DNA of 28,529 bases from Candidatus Aenigmatarchaeota archaeon (GCA_049414645.1 JBMSAV010000113.1:1-28529); one strand, 5' to 3'; counted from the stretch's first letter, positions 2,996 through 27,799 are shown. Notes: a model not told the origin generated them from the sequence alone. Program-made: numbers and translations.

Positions 2996-3463
2996 ATGTT
3001 AAATGAAAAAAATCTAGAGAAATTCTTGGAGGAAAAGAATATTGATTTCGAATTGATTGAATTTAAAGAAAGTGTGATAACTAGTGAGTCTGCAGCAAAC
3101 AAAACCAATGGAATTGTTATTAAAAGTATTTTGTTGATTTGTGATTATGAACCTATCATTTGTATCTTGCTCGGCAAAGACAAGATTGATTTTGAAAAAA
3201 TAAAAAAAGAATTAAATTGCGGAGATGTTAGACTTGCGAAAGCAAAAGAAGTTAAAGAAATTAGTGGTTATGATATTGGGGCTGTCCCACCATTTGGACA
3301 TAAACAAAAGATAAGAACAATAATAGATAGTAAAGTCGATAGTTTGCGTGAAGATGAAGAAATATATTGTGGTGGTGGCTCCCATTATCATTTGCTAAAA
3401 ATAAGAAAAGCTGATCTAATGAAGGCAATAGAAAATGCAGAAATAAAAGATATAACTCAATAA
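2996..3463 (+). CDS. YbaK/EbsC family aminoacyl-tRNA editing protein
   Basis: IKSILL, RLAKAKEVKEISGYDIGAVPPFGH and IYCGGGS motifs. Confidence 0.9.
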   Translation: MLNEKNLEKFLEEKNIDFELIEFKESVITSESAANKTNGIVIKSILLICDYEPIICILLGKDKIDFEKIKKELNCGDVRLAKAKEVKEISGYDIGAVPPFGHKQKIRTIIDSKVDSLREDEEIYCGGGSHYHLLKIRKADLMKAIENAEIKDITQ

Positions 3464-3491
3464 ATTTTTTTAATGATAATGTCTTTAATGC

Positions 3492-3615
3492 GCGGGGGTC
3501 GCCTAGCCTGGTCGATGGCGGCAGGCTCAAGTAAGGTTTTCTTGAGCTTTGATGAGATGATGAGAAGAAACCTGCTGGGTTAGTCCCTTCGTGGGTTCAA
3601 ATCCCACCCCCCGCA
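3492..3615 (+). tRNA. tRNA-Leu(CAA) with a 38-nt intron at 37/38 (3532-3569)
   Basis: GCGGGGG/CCCCCGC acceptor, A73, GCAGG/CCTGC anticodon stem, CT-CAA-G|A loop, and archaeal Leu-type variable arm T-GGG-TTAGT-CCC-TT-C. Confidence 0.9.
3541..3563 (+). ncRNA. putative intron-encoded box D'/C' (K-loop) guide element targeting C34
   Basis: Guide CTTGAGC pairs with G31-G37. D'-like TTGA at 3549-3552 and perfect C box ATGATGA at 3557-3563. The fifth nt upstream of D' (G3544) pairs with C34. Confidence 0.6.
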
Positions 3616-3651
3616 GATTTTATTTAACTAAACAAAAACAATAATCAAAAA

Positions 3652-4275
3652 ATGGAAATTGAAAAAGTTATAGAAGATCTTGAGCAAAAAATAGGAGAAA
3701 ATGCAAAAAACGGATTAAAGGTTTTTGAAAAAAACAGAAATTTGAGCAAAGAAGAAAAATTTATTGAACTTTGCTTTTGTATATTGGTTGCAAACTCGTC
3801 AATGGAAAAAACTTTCAAAATTTGGAAAGATATAGGAAATGATTTTTTAAAGATCTCAAAAGAACAACTTTCTAAAAGACTAAAAGAACTAGGATATAGG
3901 TTTTATAACAAAAGGGCCGAATACATAGTAGAAGCGAGAAATAAAGTTGATTTATTAGAAGAAATTTTGAAATCCGATAATGAAATTGAAATAAGAGAAA
4001 GGATTGTTGAAAATTTTAAAGGAATTGGTTGGAAAGAAGCTTCTCATTTTTTAAGAAATCTTGGCTATAAAAACTTTGCGATAATAGATAGACATGTTCT
4101 AAAAACTTTGAAAGAATTCGGATTTATAGAAAAGATTCCAAAATCCTTGAATAAGAAAAATTATCTTGAAATTGAAAATAAGCTTAGAGAATTAGCTAAT
4201 AAATTAAAAATGAGCTTAGCCGAACTAGATTTTTACCTATTTTACATTAGCTCTGGTAAAATGCCAATTAAATAG
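3652..4275 (+). CDS. ogg: N-glycosylase/DNA lyase (8-oxoguanine DNA glycosylase)
   Basis: ELCFCILVAN, GYRFYNKRAEYI, HhH KGIGWKEASHFLRNLG, AIIDRHVL and ELDFYLFY motifs. Confidence 0.92.
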   Translation: MEIEKVIEDLEQKIGENAKNGLKVFEKNRNLSKEEKFIELCFCILVANSSMEKTFKIWKDIGNDFLKISKEQLSKRLKELGYRFYNKRAEYIVEARNKVDLLEEILKSDNEIEIRERIVENFKGIGWKEASHFLRNLGYKNFAIIDRHVLKTLKEFGFIEKIPKSLNKKNYLEIENKLRELANKLKMSLAELDFYLFYISSGKMPIK

Positions 4276-11808: not shown

Positions 11809-11920
11809 TCCCGCCCCAGGGACTCGAACCCTGAACCTCCCGGTTTCGAGCACCTGCTTACAAGCCTCGCAAAAAGCAAGGCTCTACAGCCGGGCGCTCT
11901 GCCAGTTGAGCTAGGGCGGG
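11809..11920 (-). tRNA. tRNA-Tyr(GTA) with a 39-nt intron at 37/38 (11845-11883)
   Basis: C1-G72 acceptor CCCGCCC/GGGCGGG, A73, CCCGG/CCGGG anticodon stem, CT-GTA-G|A loop; 73 nt after intron removal. Confidence 0.92.
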
Positions 11921-19466: not shown

Positions 19467-19601
19467 GCCGGGGTCGCCTAGCCTGGTCGATGGCGGCAGT
19501 GCCATTGTCGAAGCTTAAGTGCTGGCTAGGCACATAAGCTCAGATTAATGAAGAAACCTGCTGGGTTAGTCCCTTCGTGGGTTCAAATCCCACCCCCGGC
19601 A
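19467..19601 (+). tRNA. tRNA-Leu(TAA) with two introns: 30/31 (19500-19512, 13 nt) and 37/38 (19520-19555, 36 nt)
   Basis: Body nearly identical to tRNA-Leu(CAA). Removing both segments restores GCAGG-CT-TAA-GA-CCTGC; A73; Leu-type variable arm. Confidence 0.82.
19530..19554 (+). ncRNA. putative intron-encoded box D'/C' (K-loop) guide element targeting U34
   Basis: Guide GCACATAAGC pairs with the anticodon region. D'-like CAGA at 19541-19544 and C'-like ATGAAGA at 19548-19554. The fifth nt upstream of D' (A19536) pairs with T34. Confidence 0.5.
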
Positions 19602-20666: not shown

Positions 20667-20909
20667 ATGAAAAAGGAGATTGATGTCTCTAAGCATATTT
20701 TAGTACCAAAACACGAAATACTTAACGAGAAAGAGAAAGAAGAGCTAATAAAAAGATATGGTAGCATTAAAAACTTCCCAAGAATATACACTACAGACCC
20801 ACAGGTAAAACTATTAAATGCTAAGCCAGGTGATATTATAAAAATAACAAGGTATAATGAAATCACTGGTGAATATGTACATTATAGGGTTGTAGTGGAG
20901 GGAAAATAA
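20667..20909 (+). CDS. rpoH: RNA polymerase subunit H (Rpo5)
   Basis: HILVPKHEIL, PRIYTTDP, AKPGDIIKITR and YRVVV; SD GGTGGGG precedes ATG 20667. Confidence 0.97.
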   Translation: MKKEIDVSKHILVPKHEILNEKEKEELIKRYGSIKNFPRIYTTDPQVKLLNAKPGDIIKITRYNEITGEYVHYRVVVEGK

Positions 20910-22393
20910 TGGAAAATGCATTTACTATTTTGATGAAATCATATCTAAAAGAAAAAGGTCTAGTTAATTTTCAGATTGAATCGTTCAACGATTTTGTGGA
21001 AAGGAGATTGCCAAAAATTATAAAAAACATTGGGAAAATAAAACCTGAAATTCCGGAAATTGGTGAATTGGAAATAAAACTTGGAAAATTTGAGTTGGGT
21101 GAACCAAGAGTTAAGGAAGCTGACGGCTCAATAAGAAAGATTTTACCTATGGAAGCAAGAATAAGAAACTTAACTTATGCGGCTCCAATGTATGTTGAAA
21201 TGACACAAGTTTTAAACGGAATAGAAAGTAAGCCTGTTATGATTGAAATTGGGGATTTGCCAATAATGGTAAAATCTAAGTTTTGTCCTCTTTCTAGAAT
21301 GAGTGAAAAAGAACTTATAGAGGCTGGTGAAGATCCTGATGATCCTGGAGGTTATTTTATAATAAATGGAACAGAAAGGATTCTAATGCTTGTCGAAGAA
21401 ATAGCTACAGACAGAATAATAGTTGAAAAAACTAATGATGAATCTGTTCCTGAAATTGCAAGAATACATTCGGAAAAAGAAGGCTTTATTCAGAAACACC
21501 TAATAGAAAGGAAAAGAAGTGGAGAGATTTATATAACTTTTGCGAATGTTTTAAGGATACCAATAGTAATTATTCTTAAGTCTTTAGGTTTAGAAAAAGA
21601 TAAAGAAATTTTAGAGGCCATTTCTCTAGATGAAAGAATACAAGAATTATTTTTAGTTAATATATTGGAATATCCTATAAGAAATGCGGAAGAAGCTATA
21701 GAAGAATTGGGTAAACATTTGAGAATTCCACAAAAGTCTGTGAGAAAAAAACAAGCAATAAGATTGATAGATAAATATTTATTGCCACATTTAGGGCAAG
21801 AGCCAGAAAACAGATTAACAAAAGCTATGTTTTTATGTAAAGCTATAGAGAAGATTTTGAAATTGCATTTAAGAGAAATAGAAGAAGATGACGTCGATCA
21901 TTATGCAAACAAAAGAATTAAGATGAGTGGGGATTTGTTAGAGTTATTGTTAAGATCGATACTTTTAGGTAAATGGGGACTGATAGTTAGGATGAATTAC
22001 AACTATCAAAAGTTAACAAAAAGAGGCAAATTACCTCCTTTACAAGCTGTAGTTGAAAACGCTATATTAACGAATCAAATAGTATCTGCTATGGCAGTTG
22101 GCACTTGGATTGGAGGAAGAACTGGAGTTACACAAAGATTAGATAGAAGTAGTTGGAATAAAACCATTACTCATATGAGAAATGTAGTTTCTCCTCTTTC
22201 TTCGACTCAAGAACATTTCGAAGCAAGAGAATTGCATCCTACTCATTTTGGTAAGTTATGCGTAACTCAAACTCCAGAAGGAGCTAATATTGGTTTGAGA
22301 AAATATCTTGCAATTAGCGCAACGATAACAACTAAAGTTGAAAGGAAAGAAATACAACCCATATTAGACCTTATAAAAGAGGGGGGGAAATGA
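20909..22393 (+). CDS. rpoB2: RNA polymerase subunit B'' (Rpo2N)
   Basis: QIESFNDF, PMEARIRNLTY, DPGGYFIING, DHYANKR and HPTHFGKLCVTQTPEG motifs. Confidence 0.96.
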   Translation: MENAFTILMKSYLKEKGLVNFQIESFNDFVERRLPKIIKNIGKIKPEIPEIGELEIKLGKFELGEPRVKEADGSIRKILPMEARIRNLTYAAPMYVEMTQVLNGIESKPVMIEIGDLPIMVKSKFCPLSRMSEKELIEAGEDPDDPGGYFIINGTERILMLVEEIATDRIIVEKTNDESVPEIARIHSEKEGFIQKHLIERKRSGEIYITFANVLRIPIVIILKSLGLEKDKEILEAISLDERIQELFLVNILEYPIRNAEEAIEELGKHLRIPQKSVRKKQAIRLIDKYLLPHLGQEPENRLTKAMFLCKAIEKILKLHLREIEEDDVDHYANKRIKMSGDLLELLLRSILLGKWGLIVRMNYNYQKLTKRGKLPPLQAVVENAILTNQIVSAMAVGTWIGGRTGVTQRLDRSSWNKTITHMRNVVSPLSSTQEHFEARELHPTHFGKLCVTQTPEGANIGLRKYLAISATITTKVERKEIQPILDLIKEGGK

Positions 22394-25300
22394 AAGCTAG
22401 TGTATTTTTAGATGGAGAATTTATAGGAAAAGTTGAGAATCCCAAAGAATTTGTAGATAACATAAGGAAAATGAGAAGAGAGGGTAAAATACCATATTAT
22501 GTTAATGTTGCTTATCACGAACATTTAAACGAAGTTAGAATTTTAACTTCGGCTGGTAGAGTTGTAAGACCTTTAATAGTAGTTGAAAATGGTGTTCCAA
22601 AATTAACAAAAGAGATTCTAGAAAAGGTTAAGAAAGGAGAACTTACTTTTTCCGATTTAGTAAAGAATGGAATTATAGAATATTTGGATGCCGAAGAAGA
22701 AGAAAACGCATACATTGCTATAAAACCTGAAGAAGTCACAAAAGAACATACTCATTTAGAAATCGATCCCGCTGTTGTTCTAGGATTTTCTGCCCAATTC
22801 GTCCCTTATCCAGAATTTAATAGAGGAGATAGGGTAAATTATGGAGCAAAAATGGGAGATCAGTCCATTGGAATATTCGCAACAAACTTCCTTAATAGAG
22901 TAGATAGTAAATCTAGCATTTTGGTTTATCCACAAAGACCGCTTGTGCAAACTTATATTCATAAAATTCTTGACTCAACAGAAAATTATCCTAACGGTAT
23001 AAATGTAGTAATAGCTGTAGCAACATATGAAGGTTATAATATTGAAGATGCTATAGTAATTAACAAATCTTCAGTTGAAAGAGGAATGTTCTGGAGTTAT
23101 ATGTATAGAACCTACGAGACCGAAGAAAAAAGATATTTAGGTGGACAAGAAGATGTAATTGGTATACCTCAACCTGGAATAAGAGGTTATGCTGGCGAAG
23201 ATGAATACAAGCATTTACCGGAAGATGGGATAGTTAATCCAGAAACAGAAGTAAAGTCAGATGAAGTACTTATTGGAAAGACCTCACCTCTCAGATTTTT
23301 AGGTAAAGCTGATAAATTTTTAGCCGGAATGGAAAATCTAAGAGAGACTTCTGTAAGAGTAAGACATGGGGATAAAGGAATAGTTGATAGAGTTTATATA
23401 ACTCAAACTACAGATGGTACAAAACTAGTTAAAGTAGTTTTAAGAGACTTAAAAAAGCCAGAAATTGGGGATAAGTTTGCTTCTAGACATGGTCAAAAGG
23501 GAGTTGTAGGTTTACTTGTTCCGCATGAAGATATGCCTTTCACCGAAAGCGGCATAGTTCCTGATATAATTTTCAACCCCCACGGCTTACCATCAAGAAT
23601 GACTGTAGGTCAGCTACTTGAAATTTTAGCTGGTAAAGTGGCTGCAATTTATGGTAGATATATAGATGCACCTGCTTTTAATCCCACTAATGAAAAAGAG
23701 CTGAGAGAAGCTTTAAAGAGTCTTGGGTTTGAAGAAAGCGGAAAAGAAATAATGTACGACGGTAAAACGGGGAGAAAGTTTGAAGCAAAAATATTTATAG
23801 GCTGTTCATTCTATATGAAATTAGATCATTTGGTATCTAACAAACTACAGTCTAGGGCAAGAGGACCAGTAACTTTACTAACAAGACAGCCAACTGAAGG
23901 TAGAAGCAAAGAGGGTGGTTTAAGATTAGGGGAAATGGAAAAGGATTGTTTGTTAGCTCATGGCGCTGTTTTAACTCTTAAAGAAAGATTTGATTCTGAT
24001 AAAGTTATATTGCCCGTGTGTAAAAAATGCGGAATGATTGTTGTTCACGATAAGATTAAAAATGTATACTTATGCCCTATATGTAGAGATGATGCCGAAA
24101 TAGTTAATGTTGAGATGAGCCATGCATTTAAGCTAATGTTAGATGAATTGAAAAGTTTGATAATATATCCAAAGTTAGTTATAAATGATGAAGGAAAAAT
24201 TAGCAAAATTGAATTTAGCATTCTAGATCCCGAAACTATAAGGAAAATGTCTTTTGCAAAGATTAGTAAGATAGATATTTACGATGAAGAAGGTTATCCG
24301 ATAGAAGGAGGAGTTATGGATCCTAGGCTTGGGACTATAGAACCTGGAATAAGGTGTAGAGTATGTGGAGCTAATATTGGAGAATGTCCGGGTCACTTTG
24401 GTAGTTTAGAACTAGTTAAACCAGTTATTCATCCTCACTATGTTAAATTCATACATTTCTTACTAAAAGTTAGTTGTAGAAAATGTGGAAAGATTTTAAT
24501 AAAAGATGAAGATAGAAAGAAGGAGAAAATGCCTTGGAAAGAAATAGAAAGACTTTCTTTAAAGAAGTGTCCTTTTTGTAAAACTGAACAAAAAGAAATC
24601 AAACTAATTAAGCCTTATACTTTTGTAGAGGGAAATAAAGTATTAAATCCGGCAGACGTGAGAGAAAGACTTGAAAAAATTAGCAATGAGGAATTAAAGC
24701 TTCTTGGTTTAAAAATTAGACCAGAATGGCTTGTACTAACTGTTTTGCCCATACCTCCTGTAACTATTAGGCCTTCAATAACTTTAGAAACTGGAGAAAG
24801 AAGTGAAGATGATTTAACACATAAACTTGTTGAAATTGTTAGAATTAATGATAGATTTAGGGAGAATTTGGAATTAGGTGCACCTGAATTCCTTTTGAAT
24901 GATCTGTGGGAATTATTACAGTATCATGTTGCAACATATTTTGATAATGAATTGACAGGAATTCCGCCAGCAAGACATAGATCTGGTAGGGTATTGAAGA
25001 CGTTGACTCAAAGGTTAAAAACAAAAGAAGGAAGATTTAGAGGTAATTTGTTGGGCAAAAGAGTAAACTATTGTGCAAGAACCGTTATATCACCTGATCC
25101 TAAAATAGAAATTAATGAAGTAGGTGTTCCTGAAGTTATAGCTAAAGATTTAACAATTCCTGTTAGAGTTAATGAAAAAAACATAGAAGAATTAAGAAGA
25201 TTTGTATTAAATGGTCCAAACGTGTGGCCTGGGGCAAATTACGTTATTAGACCTGATGGGAGAAAGAAAAGAATTTTAGACTCTAATAAAGAAGAAATAG

Positions 25301-26676
25301 CAAAAGAGTTAAGCGTTGATTATATAGTAGAAAGGCATTTGATAGATGGAGATATAGCACTATTTAACAGACAACCAAGCTTACATAGAATGAGTATGAT
25401 GGCCCATAAAGTAAAAGTAATGCCATTCTTAACATTTAGATTAAATGTTGCAGTCTGTCCTCCTTATAATGCTGATTTTGATGGAGATGAAATGAATTTA
25501 CATATTCCACAAACAGAAGAAGCTAGAGCAGAATCTGAAATTCTATCTATTGTTGAAAAAAATATAAGAAGCCCAAGATACTCTGCACCTATAATAGGAT
25601 TAATGAGAGATGAAATAACTGGAGTATATTTATTAACAAAAGATGGAAACAAGATTAACAGAAAAGATGCCGTTAAGCTAATAAGAAGCGTTGATATTGA
25701 TGTTGAAATTCCCGATAAAGAAGAATTTACAGGTAAAGAAATCTTCAGTGTATTTTTGCCAAAAGATTTTTCAATAGAATACAGGGGGAAAACCGGTATA
25801 GTAAAAATAGAAAATGGGATTTTAACAAAAGGTGAAATAGAAAAGAATGGAATAAGCGCTGAGGGGGGCGTAATCCTCGATAAAATGGAAAAGTATTATG
25901 GAAAGAACTTTGTGAAAGATTTTATCTATAAAATAGGTTTATTGGGAATTAACTATTTAGATATGAAAGGATTCTCTCTTGGAATATCAGATTTAGATGT
26001 TGACGATAAAGTAAAAGTTGAAATATCGAATGTTATAGAGAAGACTGAGAATGACGTCAATAAACTTATTGAGAAGTTTAATAAAGGGGAATTAATTCCA
26101 ATGATAGGTAGAACTACTGAAGAAACGTTAGAAAATATGATAAAGGAAAGAGTAGCGAGATGTTTGAATGAAAGTATGGAGATATTAGAGAAAGGAATTA
26201 AAGAATCATCAGCATTAGATATGGTAAGATGTGGGGCAAGAGGAAGTCTTATTAATTTGCTGCAAATAGTTGGATTAATTGGACAAGAAATGATAATGGG
26301 TGAAAGGATAGAGAGAGGGTATTATAAAAGAACATTCCCCCACTTTAAACCAAATGACAAAAGTCTTGCTTCTAAAGGGTTTGTTTCGCATTCATTTAAA
26401 GATGGCTTAAATGTTTTTGAATTCTATTTTGATAACATGAATTCTAGAGAGAGCCTAATGGATAAGAGTTTAAAAACAAGACACTCAGGTTACATGGAGA
26501 GAAGACTTATAGGAGCTCTACAAGATTTAAAAGTTGCATATGATGGTACAGTAAGAGATGCTGCCAATAGAATAATTCAATTTGTTCCATGTGAAGATGG
26601 TTTAGATCCATCTAAAATTACAAAAGAAGGAATAAATGTAAAAGAAATAGCAAGGAGGTTATTAAATGCTTCCTAA
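22390..26676 (+). CDS. fused RNA polymerase subunits B' (Rpo2C, aa 1 to about 601) and A' (Rpo1N, about aa 602-1428)
   Basis: B' motifs [28 protein letters not shown] and FKLMLDEL run without a stop into A' motifs [36 protein letters not shown] and SGYMERRL. Confidence 0.85.
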
Positions 26677-27799
26677 AAAAATAATTGAAGAAATAGAAAA
26701 CGTCTCAAAAGAATTTAGGCTAAAAGAAGATAAAAAAGAAAAATTGATTGAAGAAGTAAGAAGGATTTACTTAAATAGTAGATTTGAACCGGGAGAAGCT
26801 ATAGGAATTCTTGCTGCTCAAAGTATTTCGGAACCTGCAACTCAACTTACAATGAGAACGTATCATCTAGCTGGAGCTGCTGGTATTAAAGTAACTTTTG
26901 GTCTACCTAGATTGGTTGAAATATTTGACGCAAAAAGAAATATAGAAACGCCGATGATGACAATATACCTGAAAAAAGAATACAATACTAAAGAAAATGC
27001 AGAAAGGCTCGCGTATAAAATAGTAGAGAGGCGTGTTTTAGATTTATCTAAATATATTTCTATAGACATAGGAGAAAAATGCATTAATATAGAACTTGAA
27101 GACAAGAGAAAAGTTGAAAAGGTAGTGAAATGCATTAAGGCATCCTTGTCAAAAAACTTTGAAGTTAAAGTAAAGGAAGATTATATTAGCATTTATCCTA
27201 AAAGTGAAAATATTCAATTTTCAGACCTACAAAAATTAAAAGAAGAAGTTGGTAATTTAGTCGTAGAAGGAATTGATGGTATAACAGCAGCAATAATAAG
27301 AAAAGAAGATGATAATTGGATTGTACAAACGGTTGGCTCTAATCTAAAGGAGATCTTAAAGTTTGATGAAGTTGATGAACATAAAACGGTTTCTAATGAT
27401 ATTTATGAAATTTATGAAATCTTTGGAATCGAAGCCGCAAGAAATGTTATAATAAAAGAAGCTTATAAAACGATGCAAGAGCAAGGATTGAATGTTGATA
27501 TAAGATACTTACTATTATTAGCAGATGTTATGACATGGAGTGGTGAGATAAGTTCTATAGGAAGATATGGTGTTGCGGGTGCAAAAGCATCTGTTCTTGC
27601 AAGAGCGGCCTTCGAAGAAACAATAAAACATTTAATTAGAGCATCCATTAGAAATGAAGAAGACGAATTTAAAGGTTTGTTCGAAAATGTAATGGTTGGT
27701 CAGCCAGCTCCTGTAGGTACTGGGATGTTCGAATTAATATTTAAGGGTGAGGAATATGAATATAGAGGAAAAAATAAAGGAAGCGATGAAAGAGAATAA
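26666..27799 (+). CDS. rpoA2: RNA polymerase subunit A'' (Rpo1C)
   Basis: [50 protein letters not shown] and [10 protein letters not shown] motifs. Confidence 0.97.

Follow-up and report, generated by a model that had tools for sequence, protein, structure and literature searches.

A short intron of tRNA-Leu(CAA) in Candidatus Aenigmatarchaeota as a candidate box C/D-like guide for 2'-O-methylation of its own wobble nucleotide

Introduction

The closest described system is the intronic C/D guide of euryarchaeal pre-tRNA-Trp, known from Haloferax volcanii and, as sR50, from Pyrococcus (Clouet d'Orval 2001 and Singh 2004, as cited in PMC7994747 and PMC2584109). It is about 100 nt long, contains full C/D and C'/D' motifs with two guides (for Cm34 and Um39), and is called unique to tRNA-Trp (PMC2584109). 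According to Randau (2012, PMC3491384), no intronic guide other than that of tRNA-Trp was known before the case of N. equitans, in which the elongator tRNA-Met's 66-nt intron is a stable RNA carrying a single box C and a single box D and was proposed to be a guide. In the literature covered, an intronic guide is established for tRNA-Trp only and suggested for the tRNA-Met of N. equitans (PMC2584109, PMC3491384). Our search of openly accessible literature found no description of a short module shared by several tRNAs or of a guide in a tRNA-Leu intron.

Here we analyse a 28,529-nt stretch of DNA from a Candidatus Aenigmatarchaeota archaeon (GCA_049414645.1, JBMSAV010000113.1:1-28529), the whole of which is referred to below as the window. 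A preliminary description, made from the sequence, had proposed that the tRNA-Leu(CAA) intron encoded in it is a built-in guide for methylation of the wobble nucleotide C34 of the same tRNA. In our opinion, this intron is probably a minimal box C/D-like guide built on a D'/C' K-loop, with 2'-O-methylation of its own C34 as the predicted outcome. Like the pre-tRNA-Trp guide, as the latter is described in the sources cited above, it lies inside a 37/38 intron, has a D' guide antisense to the anticodon loop, places the N+5 position on C34 and is released as a circle. The pre-tRNA-Trp guide, according to the same accounts, depends on L7Ae, Nop5 and fibrillarin; all three are encoded here, and a similar dependence may be supposed. 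In contrast to the pre-tRNA-Trp guide, the module found in Aenigmatarchaeota is only 24-46 nt long and has one D'-loop-C' pair, one guide of 6-7 nt and no terminal C/D motif. Even the Trp introns of these archaea are reduced (24-45 nt, one box pair), and tRNA-Trp is just one of at least nine tRNA species carrying the module.

The tRNA-Met intron of N. equitans is similar in that it also belongs to a DPANN archaeon, has one box C and one box D and is abundant as RNA; however, it concerns a single tRNA and is longer, with a GC hairpin, and its published description, as covered here, names neither a target nor an N+5 register. The stand-alone sRNAs of Pyrococcus and Sulfolobus share with the module the target nucleotide and, largely, the set of tRNAs (PMC7994747, PMC7668247), but these are products of separate genes, with two box pairs and guides of 10-12 nt, acting in trans, whereas the Aenigmatarchaeota guide is built into its substrate.

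In the half-mer C/D RNAs of in vitro and structural studies on archaeal sRNPs, a single K-turn with one guide can place fibrillarin on N+5. Those constructs were made in the laboratory and have a terminal C/D K-turn, while here we deal with a putative natural K-loop and a target tied to the guide by a short loop.

Results

Gene and Genome

The window is contig C113 of a 595-kb genome, 83% complete (G000 in the coordinates below), whose FtsZ relatives belong to Candidatus Aenigmatarchaeota MAGs; the DNA of the window was found mostly in hot-spring metagenomes. With introns allowed, ARAGORN called the tRNA-Leu(CAA) gene with a 38-nt intron within the limits given in Table 1, and the Rfam RF00005 score was 40.8 bits (E 9e-8). 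The anticodon stem is formed by GCAGG (3521-3525) and CCUGC (3571-3575); C32 is at 3526, the anticodon CAA occupies 3528-3530 with C34 at 3528, and G37 and A38 are at 3531 and 3570.

Elsewhere in the window, a 1428-aa ORF (22390-26676, +), flanked by 20909-22393 upstream and 26666-27799 downstream, joins Rpb2 domains 4-7 (RpoB') to Rpb1 domains 1-5 (RpoA'). RpoB' and RpoA' are encoded by separate genes in archaea as a rule; judging from its domain content, this ORF would be a B'-A' RNA polymerase fusion.

Table 1. Features of the tRNA-Leu(CAA) locus, other tRNA genes of the window, and intron-bearing tRNAs of three genomes with and without the module
Feature	Positions	Strand	Basis
tRNA-Leu(CAA) gene, class II, intron-bearing, discriminator A at 3615	3492-3615	+	ARAGORN -i; Rfam RF00005
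5' exon of tRNA-Leu(CAA)	3492-3531	+	sequence; 5' splice site 3531/3532 from circular junction
Target strand G31-G37 (GCUCAAG), partner of intron guide	3525-3531	+	sequence; helix present in centroid fold
Intron, 38 nt, excised and circularised	3532-3569	+	68-nt RNA contig joining 3569 to 3532
Variable apical loop, target to guide (3-19 nt in relatives)	3532-3540	+	comparison with relatives
Antisense guide CUUGAGC	3541-3547	+	sequence; register kept in 86/87 arms
D'-like box UUGA, after one spacer nucleotide U3548	3549-3552	+	sequence; comparison
K-loop spacer TGAG, length and sequence varying in relatives	3553-3556	+	sequence; comparison
C'-like box AUGAUGA	3557-3563	+	sequence; (U)GAU(G/A)A kept in orthologues
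Intron tail GAAGAA; RGAA/A conserved	3564-3569	+	comparison; 3' splice site from RNA circle
3' exon of tRNA-Leu(CAA), from A38 (3570), with CCUGC at 3571-3575	3570-3615	+	sequence, ARAGORN, RNA contig
tRNA-Tyr(GUA), internal control, 39-nt intron without box pair	11809-11920	-	sequence
tRNA-Leu(UAA), second module in the window, two inferred introns	19467-19601	+	R1 match E 0.027; splice sites inferred
Own genome, with module: Leu(CAA), Leu(UAA), Gln(UUG), Lys(UUU), Trp(CCA), Ser(UGA), Arg(UCU); Ser(CGA) with degenerate D' CUUA			
Own genome, 37/38 introns without N34-directed module: Ser(GCU), Tyr(GUA), Cys(GCA), Thr(UGU)			
G017 (same family), with module: Leu(CAA), Leu(UAA), Gln(UUG), Glu(UUC), Lys(UUU), Trp(CCA), CAU tRNA, Ser(UGA)			
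G017, 37/38 introns without N34-directed module: Ala(CGC), Cys(GCA), Tyr(GUA), Thr(UGU), Ile(UAU), two long Ser introns			
G081 (another family), with module: Gln(UUG), Leu(CAA), Leu(UAA), Glu(UUC), Lys(UUU)			
G081, without N34-directed module: Tyr and 11-13 nt introns			

Putative Guide Module in the Leu(CAA) Intron

The intron segment CTTGAGC is the exact reverse complement of GCTCAAG, and the guide lies within the 37/38 intron and is complementary to the anticodon loop of its own tRNA. G3544, standing opposite C34, is the fifth nucleotide upstream of the D'-like box, and the boxes follow each other in the order D'-loop-C' (UUGA, then AUGAUGA). The preliminary description had given these elements (the antisense CTTGAGC, TTGA, a 4-nt spacer, ATGATGA, and G3544 facing C34 at D'+5), and both its coordinates and its arithmetic, read from the sequence, proved to be correct throughout. 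By analogy with the established K-turn/K-loop consensus, from which the pairing scheme was taken, the two boxes are predicted to form the pairs A3552.G3559, G3551.A3560, U3550.U3561, U3549.G3562 and U3548-A3563. Another reading, with UGAUGA at 3550-3555 as the true C box, was rejected, as the orthologues have UGAUUA, UGAUAA or UGAAAU at this place and keep UUGA.

The 38-nt intron has no second box set (no CUGA about 12 nt past C' and no C box 5' of the guide), nor was a second guide, for position 39, found in its sequence. Its guide comprises 6-7 nt versus 10-12 usual for box C/D sRNA. Having only one box pair, the intron is not a canonical C/D sRNA and can be regarded as a half-mer variant at most.

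Taken in a single sequence, the box pair is not beyond chance: TTGA-N2-9-TGATGA has four matches in the window against 1.25 expected, and 4 of 100 shuffles reach this number. A complement of the anticodon is, for its part, normal in a tRNA intron. Rfam C/D families aligned to the intron score 9-17 bits, all below threshold, and nearest-neighbour tools, for which a K-loop fold is outside what can be computed, gave no significant Watson-Crick fold of the excised intron. It is because the module is conserved and stands in a fixed register in the relatives that it exceeds chance, and this comparative evidence is strong.

RNA Evidence for the Excised Intron

Contigs of the hot-spring metatranscriptome X24 were aligned to positions 3400-3700 of the window. 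One of them, 68 nt long with a depth of 13.2 and zero mismatches, runs along 3540-3569 and then directly along 3532-3569. A 38-nt circle assembled with 31-mers predicts a unitig of 38 + 30 = 68 nt, identical to the length observed; therefore, this contig represents the circular excised intron with the junction A3569-U3532. The shorter side of the junction has 30 letters, i.e., one under the counting rule of the alignment tool, and was accepted since its length, the zero mismatches and the unitig logic agree. The junction sets the splice sites at 3531/3532 and 3569/3570, that is, at the canonical position 37/38, and gives the mature loop CUCAAGA, so that the intron placement after A35 by ARAGORN is wrong, while the limits of the 38-nt intron in the preliminary description agree with the ends of the RNA, 3532 and 3569.

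The circular contig also means that the excised intron persists as RNA. Many archaeal tRNA introns are circular, and the Leu(CAA) circle is thus no specific sign of a guide; a circular form is also known for the tRNA-Trp guide intron and for many archaeal C/D sRNAs (PMC3491384, PMC7994747). A second X24 contig (76 nt, depth 8.7) extends from 3540 to 3615, covering intron and 3' exon, and may derive from a precursor, from a 3' half or from DNA that entered the library. No depth was recorded over the 5' exon in this run.

Proposed Splicing Fold

No canonical BHB, in which a 4-bp helix of nt 32-35 with intron nt n-5 to n-2 stands between two 3-nt bulges, is present in Leu(CAA): C32 can pair with G3567 and U33 with A3566, while C34/A3565 and A35/G3564 cannot pair, and the anticodon-intron pairs adjoin a 3-nt bulge, A3568 A3569/A3570. 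All four central BHB pairs are present in Ser(GCU) of the same genome. A BHB formed by UGAG (3561-3564) with CUCA of positions 32-35 was considered and rejected, being not conserved and leaving a 6-nt bulge. The RNA circle demonstrates that Leu(CAA) is cleaved at the canonical 37/38 sites despite the missing canonical BHB, presumably by an endonuclease of relaxed specificity. In DPANN, an insert of the EndA proteins has been linked to relaxed specificity (PMC5829648). Two ORFs with EndA domains were found in the genome, at G000:C66:8485-8763 and G000:C71:805-1050, in a 192-aa and a 403-aa frame. Since C32 and U33 belong to the guide helix as well, the guide fold and the splicing fold are mutually exclusive, as in pre-tRNA-Trp.

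The main rival explanation holds that the K-loop is a structural or chaperone element, to which L7Ae or another K-turn binder attaches and either presents the poor BHB to the endonuclease or protects the circle, thereby aiding splicing or circle stability. Indeed, the introns with the module are devoid of the canonical 4-bp central helix, whereas the module-free introns of Ser(GCU), Thr(UGU), Ile(UAU) and Ala(CGC) in the same genomes have one, and the relaxed specificity tied to the DPANN endonuclease insert (PMC5829648), together with the two EndA-domain ORFs, agrees with a need for such help. However, the missing helix can also be explained by the guide holding the anticodon, and a spacing between K-loop and 3' splice site that varies from 1 to 14 nt among the relatives is a poor fit with splice-site definition. 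Taking into account also the spacing and the choice of tRNAs considered below, we believe this explanation to be rather unlikely, and the guide reading remains the one preferred here.

Distribution and Register of the Module

A covariance model, R1, was built from 29 Leu arms and searched against the relatives. Within the order, it has matches in 112 of 118 genomes, at 1-8 places in each, and these represent 44 of 46 genera and 6 of 7 families; in the class, it matches 71 of the 151 sampled genomes, including, outside the order, 45 of 125, in about 20 families (since the genomes are related, these counts are not independent and overstate independence). Sixty sampled matches are tRNAs for Trp, Leu(CAA), Leu(UAA), Gln(UUG) and Ser(UGA) and a CAU tRNA, with one common layout. 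Weak matches at C104, C49 and C2 of the own genome were discarded as coding sequence containing no tRNAs. As a separate observation, in class-level relatives (L195, L202, L207 of G130, L199 and L213) the T-loop region of the tRNAs with the module is broken directly after GTTCAAA by unrelated sequence, which suggests further introns or split tRNA genes.

In 86 of the 87 distinct arms from Candidatus Aenigmatarchaeota, NNGA begins exactly 5 nt 3' of the partner of N34, as the D'+5 = N34 rule put forward for the single intron in the preliminary description would have it. The D'-like box retains GA in its variants UUGA, CUGA, CCGA and CAGA known from the relatives, and the tetramers of the 86 arms are UUGA (66), CUGA (14), CCGA (3), CAGA (2) and UCGA (1). 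A GA-containing C' box is present in 82 of the 87, usually as (U)GAUGA or UGAAGA; some members have degenerate forms (UGAAGA, UGAUAA, UGAGG). The other lengths vary: 3-19 nt for the loop, 1-14 for the D'-C' spacer and 1-14 from C' to the 3' splice site, so that of all distances in the module only the one relevant to N+5 is fixed. Most of the 87 arms came from a model that already encodes this spacing, and for this reason the intron-containing tRNAs called by ARAGORN in three genomes were parsed separately, without the model. NNGA was found at +5 to +8 in 15/15 introns having an internal complement of nucleotides 32-36. Seven more introns with NNGA in the N+5 register were recognized by eye, and the sole exception was Ser(CGA) of the own genome, with CUUA.

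Under the structural explanation, the fixed distance between the anticodon complement and the K-loop would result from helices stacked coaxially at a three-way junction, but agreement of this distance with the N+5 rule is not among its predictions.

Leu Orthologues and Covariation

A pre-tRNA search of 40 relatives retrieved about 27 orthologous Leu(CAA/UAA) genes, all of one layout: the anticodon complement, 1-2 free bases, NNGA, 1-10 variable bases, (U)GAU(G/A)A, and the tail RGAA before A38. The boxes, along with the D'+5 = N34 relation, which the preliminary description had proposed to look for in orthologous introns, are indeed kept there. The apical loop and the box spacer are unalignable between genera. 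Position 1 of D' and position 5 of C', which are predicted to face each other, vary as U.G, U-A or C-G among the orthologues. In the alignment of 29 arms, 93.7% of the guide-helix cells are paired, with compensatory changes across anticodons; the pair of position 34 changes from C-G to U-A in five rows, other anticodon positions also covary, and 0/500 shuffles were as good. Sliding the partner by one column lowers the pairing to 36-50%.

The Leu(UAA) gene of the window provides a second example. Its inferred introns are one of 13 nt in the anticodon stem (19500-19512) and one of 36 nt (19520-19555), the latter containing the guide UAAGC (19535-19539), CAGA (19541-19544) and AUGAAGA (19548-19554); A19536, opposite U34 (19516), is again the fifth nucleotide upstream of the D'-like box. 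An apparent extra intron in the 5' strand of the anticodon stem, at nucleotides 30/31, was seen in this gene and also at G000:C36:479-608 and G000:C42:488-615; it measures 13 nt for Leu(UAA), 17 nt for Lys(UUU) and, depending on the anticodon reading, 13 or 30 nt for the C36 Leu gene. ARAGORN mis-calls all three tRNAs in which the 30/31 intron is combined with one at 37/38.

These data bear upon the supposition that the module is functionless, its box-like words being left over from an ancestral intron which had dispersed over the tRNA genes. The introns may well share ancestry, the genomes are related, and the box pair of a single sequence is within chance; nevertheless, the GA dinucleotides and the register have survived across the order and in other orders while the flanks turned over wholly, and the guide tracks each anticodon. 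Such functionless inheritance is, in our view, highly improbable.

tRNAs Carrying the Module

The carriers are Leu(CAA), Leu(UAA), Trp, elongator Met, Gln(UUG), Glu(UUC), Lys(UUU), Arg(UCU) and Ser(UGA). Thus, while the guide reading of Leu(CAA) in the preliminary description is supported as far as computation goes, its confinement to this tRNA was too narrow, the module occurring on at least nine tRNA species across the lineage. In G017, which like G081 is a nearly whole genome, the intron-bearing CAU tRNA is the elongator Met and the intron-less one the initiator, Ile being read by UAU and GAU. In the G34 tRNAs (Ser(GCU), Tyr, Cys), as in several four-box tRNAs, the introns are of the ordinary kind, with no N34-directed module; an ordinary central helix of 3-4 bp occurs in the introns of Ser(GCU), Thr(UGU) of G017, Ile(UAU) and Ala(CGC). 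Nor is the module present in those isoacceptors of Gln, Glu, Lys and Arg that have C34. The list consists, therefore, chiefly of tRNAs reading split NNR codon boxes, together with Trp and Met.

It overlaps with the set of archaeal tRNAs in which N34 is known or predicted to be targeted by box C/D RNAs: in Pyrococcus, stand-alone C/D sRNAs are directed at this nucleotide in Leu(CAA), Leu(UAA), Met and Trp (Clouet d'Orval 2001, as cited in PMC7994747), and in Sulfolobus at that of Gln(UUG) (PMC7668247). Such sorting would not be expected for a purely structural element, which predicts neither that the carriers should be known targets of C/D-guided Nm34 nor that G34 tRNAs should be free of the module. 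On the other side, K-loop-like motifs not directed at N34 occur in the introns of Thr(UGU) and Cys(GCA), which favours the structural explanation.

Two further arrangements deserve mention in themselves. Thr(UGU) of the own genome (G000:C68:3408-3507) has a canonical BHB and an internal hairpin capped by UUGA-U-UGAUGA; the bases 5' of UUGA complement the 3' splice junction, position 5 being opposite G39, an arrangement that recalls the Um39 guide of tRNA-Trp. Ser(CGA) of G017 (G017:C1:372329-372469) and of G016 (L024) contains an intron of 53-55 nt resembling a fuller C/D sRNA, with AUGAUAA, the conserved 12-nt guide GCUCUGGGGUAG, CUGA and AUGAUGA; this guide does not complement the anticodon, and its matches to the 16S and 23S rRNA of G017 do not exceed 7 nt.

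The same list of carriers admits yet another explanation, by which the module guides or times a different wobble modification (ac4C, or xm5/s2 of U34) or masks the anticodon, serving as a platform for a K-turn protein without fibrillarin. We know of no archaeal system for a non-fibrillarin wobble modification of this kind. The carriers mostly decode split NNR boxes, where U34 is usually heavily modified, and ac4Cm34 and s2Um34 do occur in archaeal tRNAs (PMC7668247). But an exact N+5 register is a specific mark of fibrillarin placement, and the sharing of one module by C34 and U34 tRNAs is better suited to ribose than to base modification; hence we regard this possibility as improbable and continue with fibrillarin-dependent guiding of 2'-O-methylation.

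Protein Machinery and Search for Other Guides

The presence of fibrillarin, Nop5 and L7Ae genes had been named in the preliminary description as a check on the guide, and profile matches indicate that the own genome encodes all three (PF01269, 235.8 bits; PF01798, 216 bits; PF01248, 98.7 bits, respectively), the Nop5 and fibrillarin genes being adjacent on contig C16. Fibrillarin is present in 150 of 151 genomes of the class, so that its co-occurrence with the module is uninformative.

A strict regular-expression search revealed no canonical double-box C/D sRNAs in the own genome. It contains 17 RUGAUGA...CUGA pairs, of which one has a terminal stem, and G017 contains 12; both box sets, by the strict pattern, were found in neither, despite the presence of fibrillarin and Nop5. 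The rRNA guides of this lineage, if any, may be atypical. The own assembly has no 23S rRNA and only a partial 16S. In the latter (G000:C42:2378-3617, -), about 870 nt separate model positions 1281 and 1344, which suggests an insertion or intron; tRNA-Lys(UUU) is located on the same contig. A search of three genomes for stand-alone antisense plus K-loop modules against intron-less tRNAs was too permissive, produced noise only and was abandoned.

Discussion

The following order of events may be proposed for Leu(CAA). The pre-tRNA would be transcribed with its intron, with which the 76-nt contig is consistent, though library DNA could yield the same. Intron nucleotides 3541-3547 are predicted to pair with nucleotides 31-37 in a short hairpin, for which the covariation speaks, and UUGA and AUGAUGA could then form a K-loop containing sheared G.A pairs in tandem, to be bound by L7Ae, which would recruit Nop5 and fibrillarin. 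From the N+5 rule one would expect fibrillarin to methylate the ribose of C34, paired to the fifth guide position upstream of D'. Once the anticodon loop is freed, C32 and U33 might re-pair with G3567 and A3566 beside the 3-nt bulge, after which a relaxed-specificity endonuclease would cut at 3531/3532 and 3569/3570; both the sites and the circle arising when the exons are joined and the intron is circularised are seen in the RNA, whereas the order of these steps is a proposal. It may be speculated that the intron circle lasts as an RNP and acts in trans. The same module would serve at least nine tRNA species of the lineage.

Against the guide reading, one must set the single box pair, the duplex of 6-7 bp, a D' box in which UUGA prevails over CUGA, and the C' box, degenerate in some members. 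Archaeal sRNPs perform best when C/D and C'/D' motifs are juxtaposed, but half-mer RNAs are active in vitro.

As a broader possibility, one that we advance tentatively and hold with less confidence than the guide itself, Aenigmatarchaeota and possibly other DPANN may have retained the introns of the split-NNR tRNAs, and of those for Trp, Met and Ser(UGA), as single-K-loop half-mer guides acting in cis on the wobble ribose; a shift from the guide helix to the C32-G(n-2) pair would couple methylation to splicing, the circular RNP would be capable of acting in trans, and stand-alone tRNA-targeting sRNAs would have been replaced.

If the guide reading is true, it would provide a function for many of the tRNA introns that are so oddly frequent in DPANN. 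The module would be the smallest natural box C/D-type guide, a functional RNA of about 25 nt with one K-loop and its own transcript as the target, and would offer a simple natural scaffold for learning how a single K-turn together with Nop5 and fibrillarin measures off five nucleotides. A reduced genome would thereby keep wobble 2'-O-methylation exactly where misreading of split boxes is costly. In this way the module bears on the old question of why tRNA introns are located at 37/38 and why they persist.
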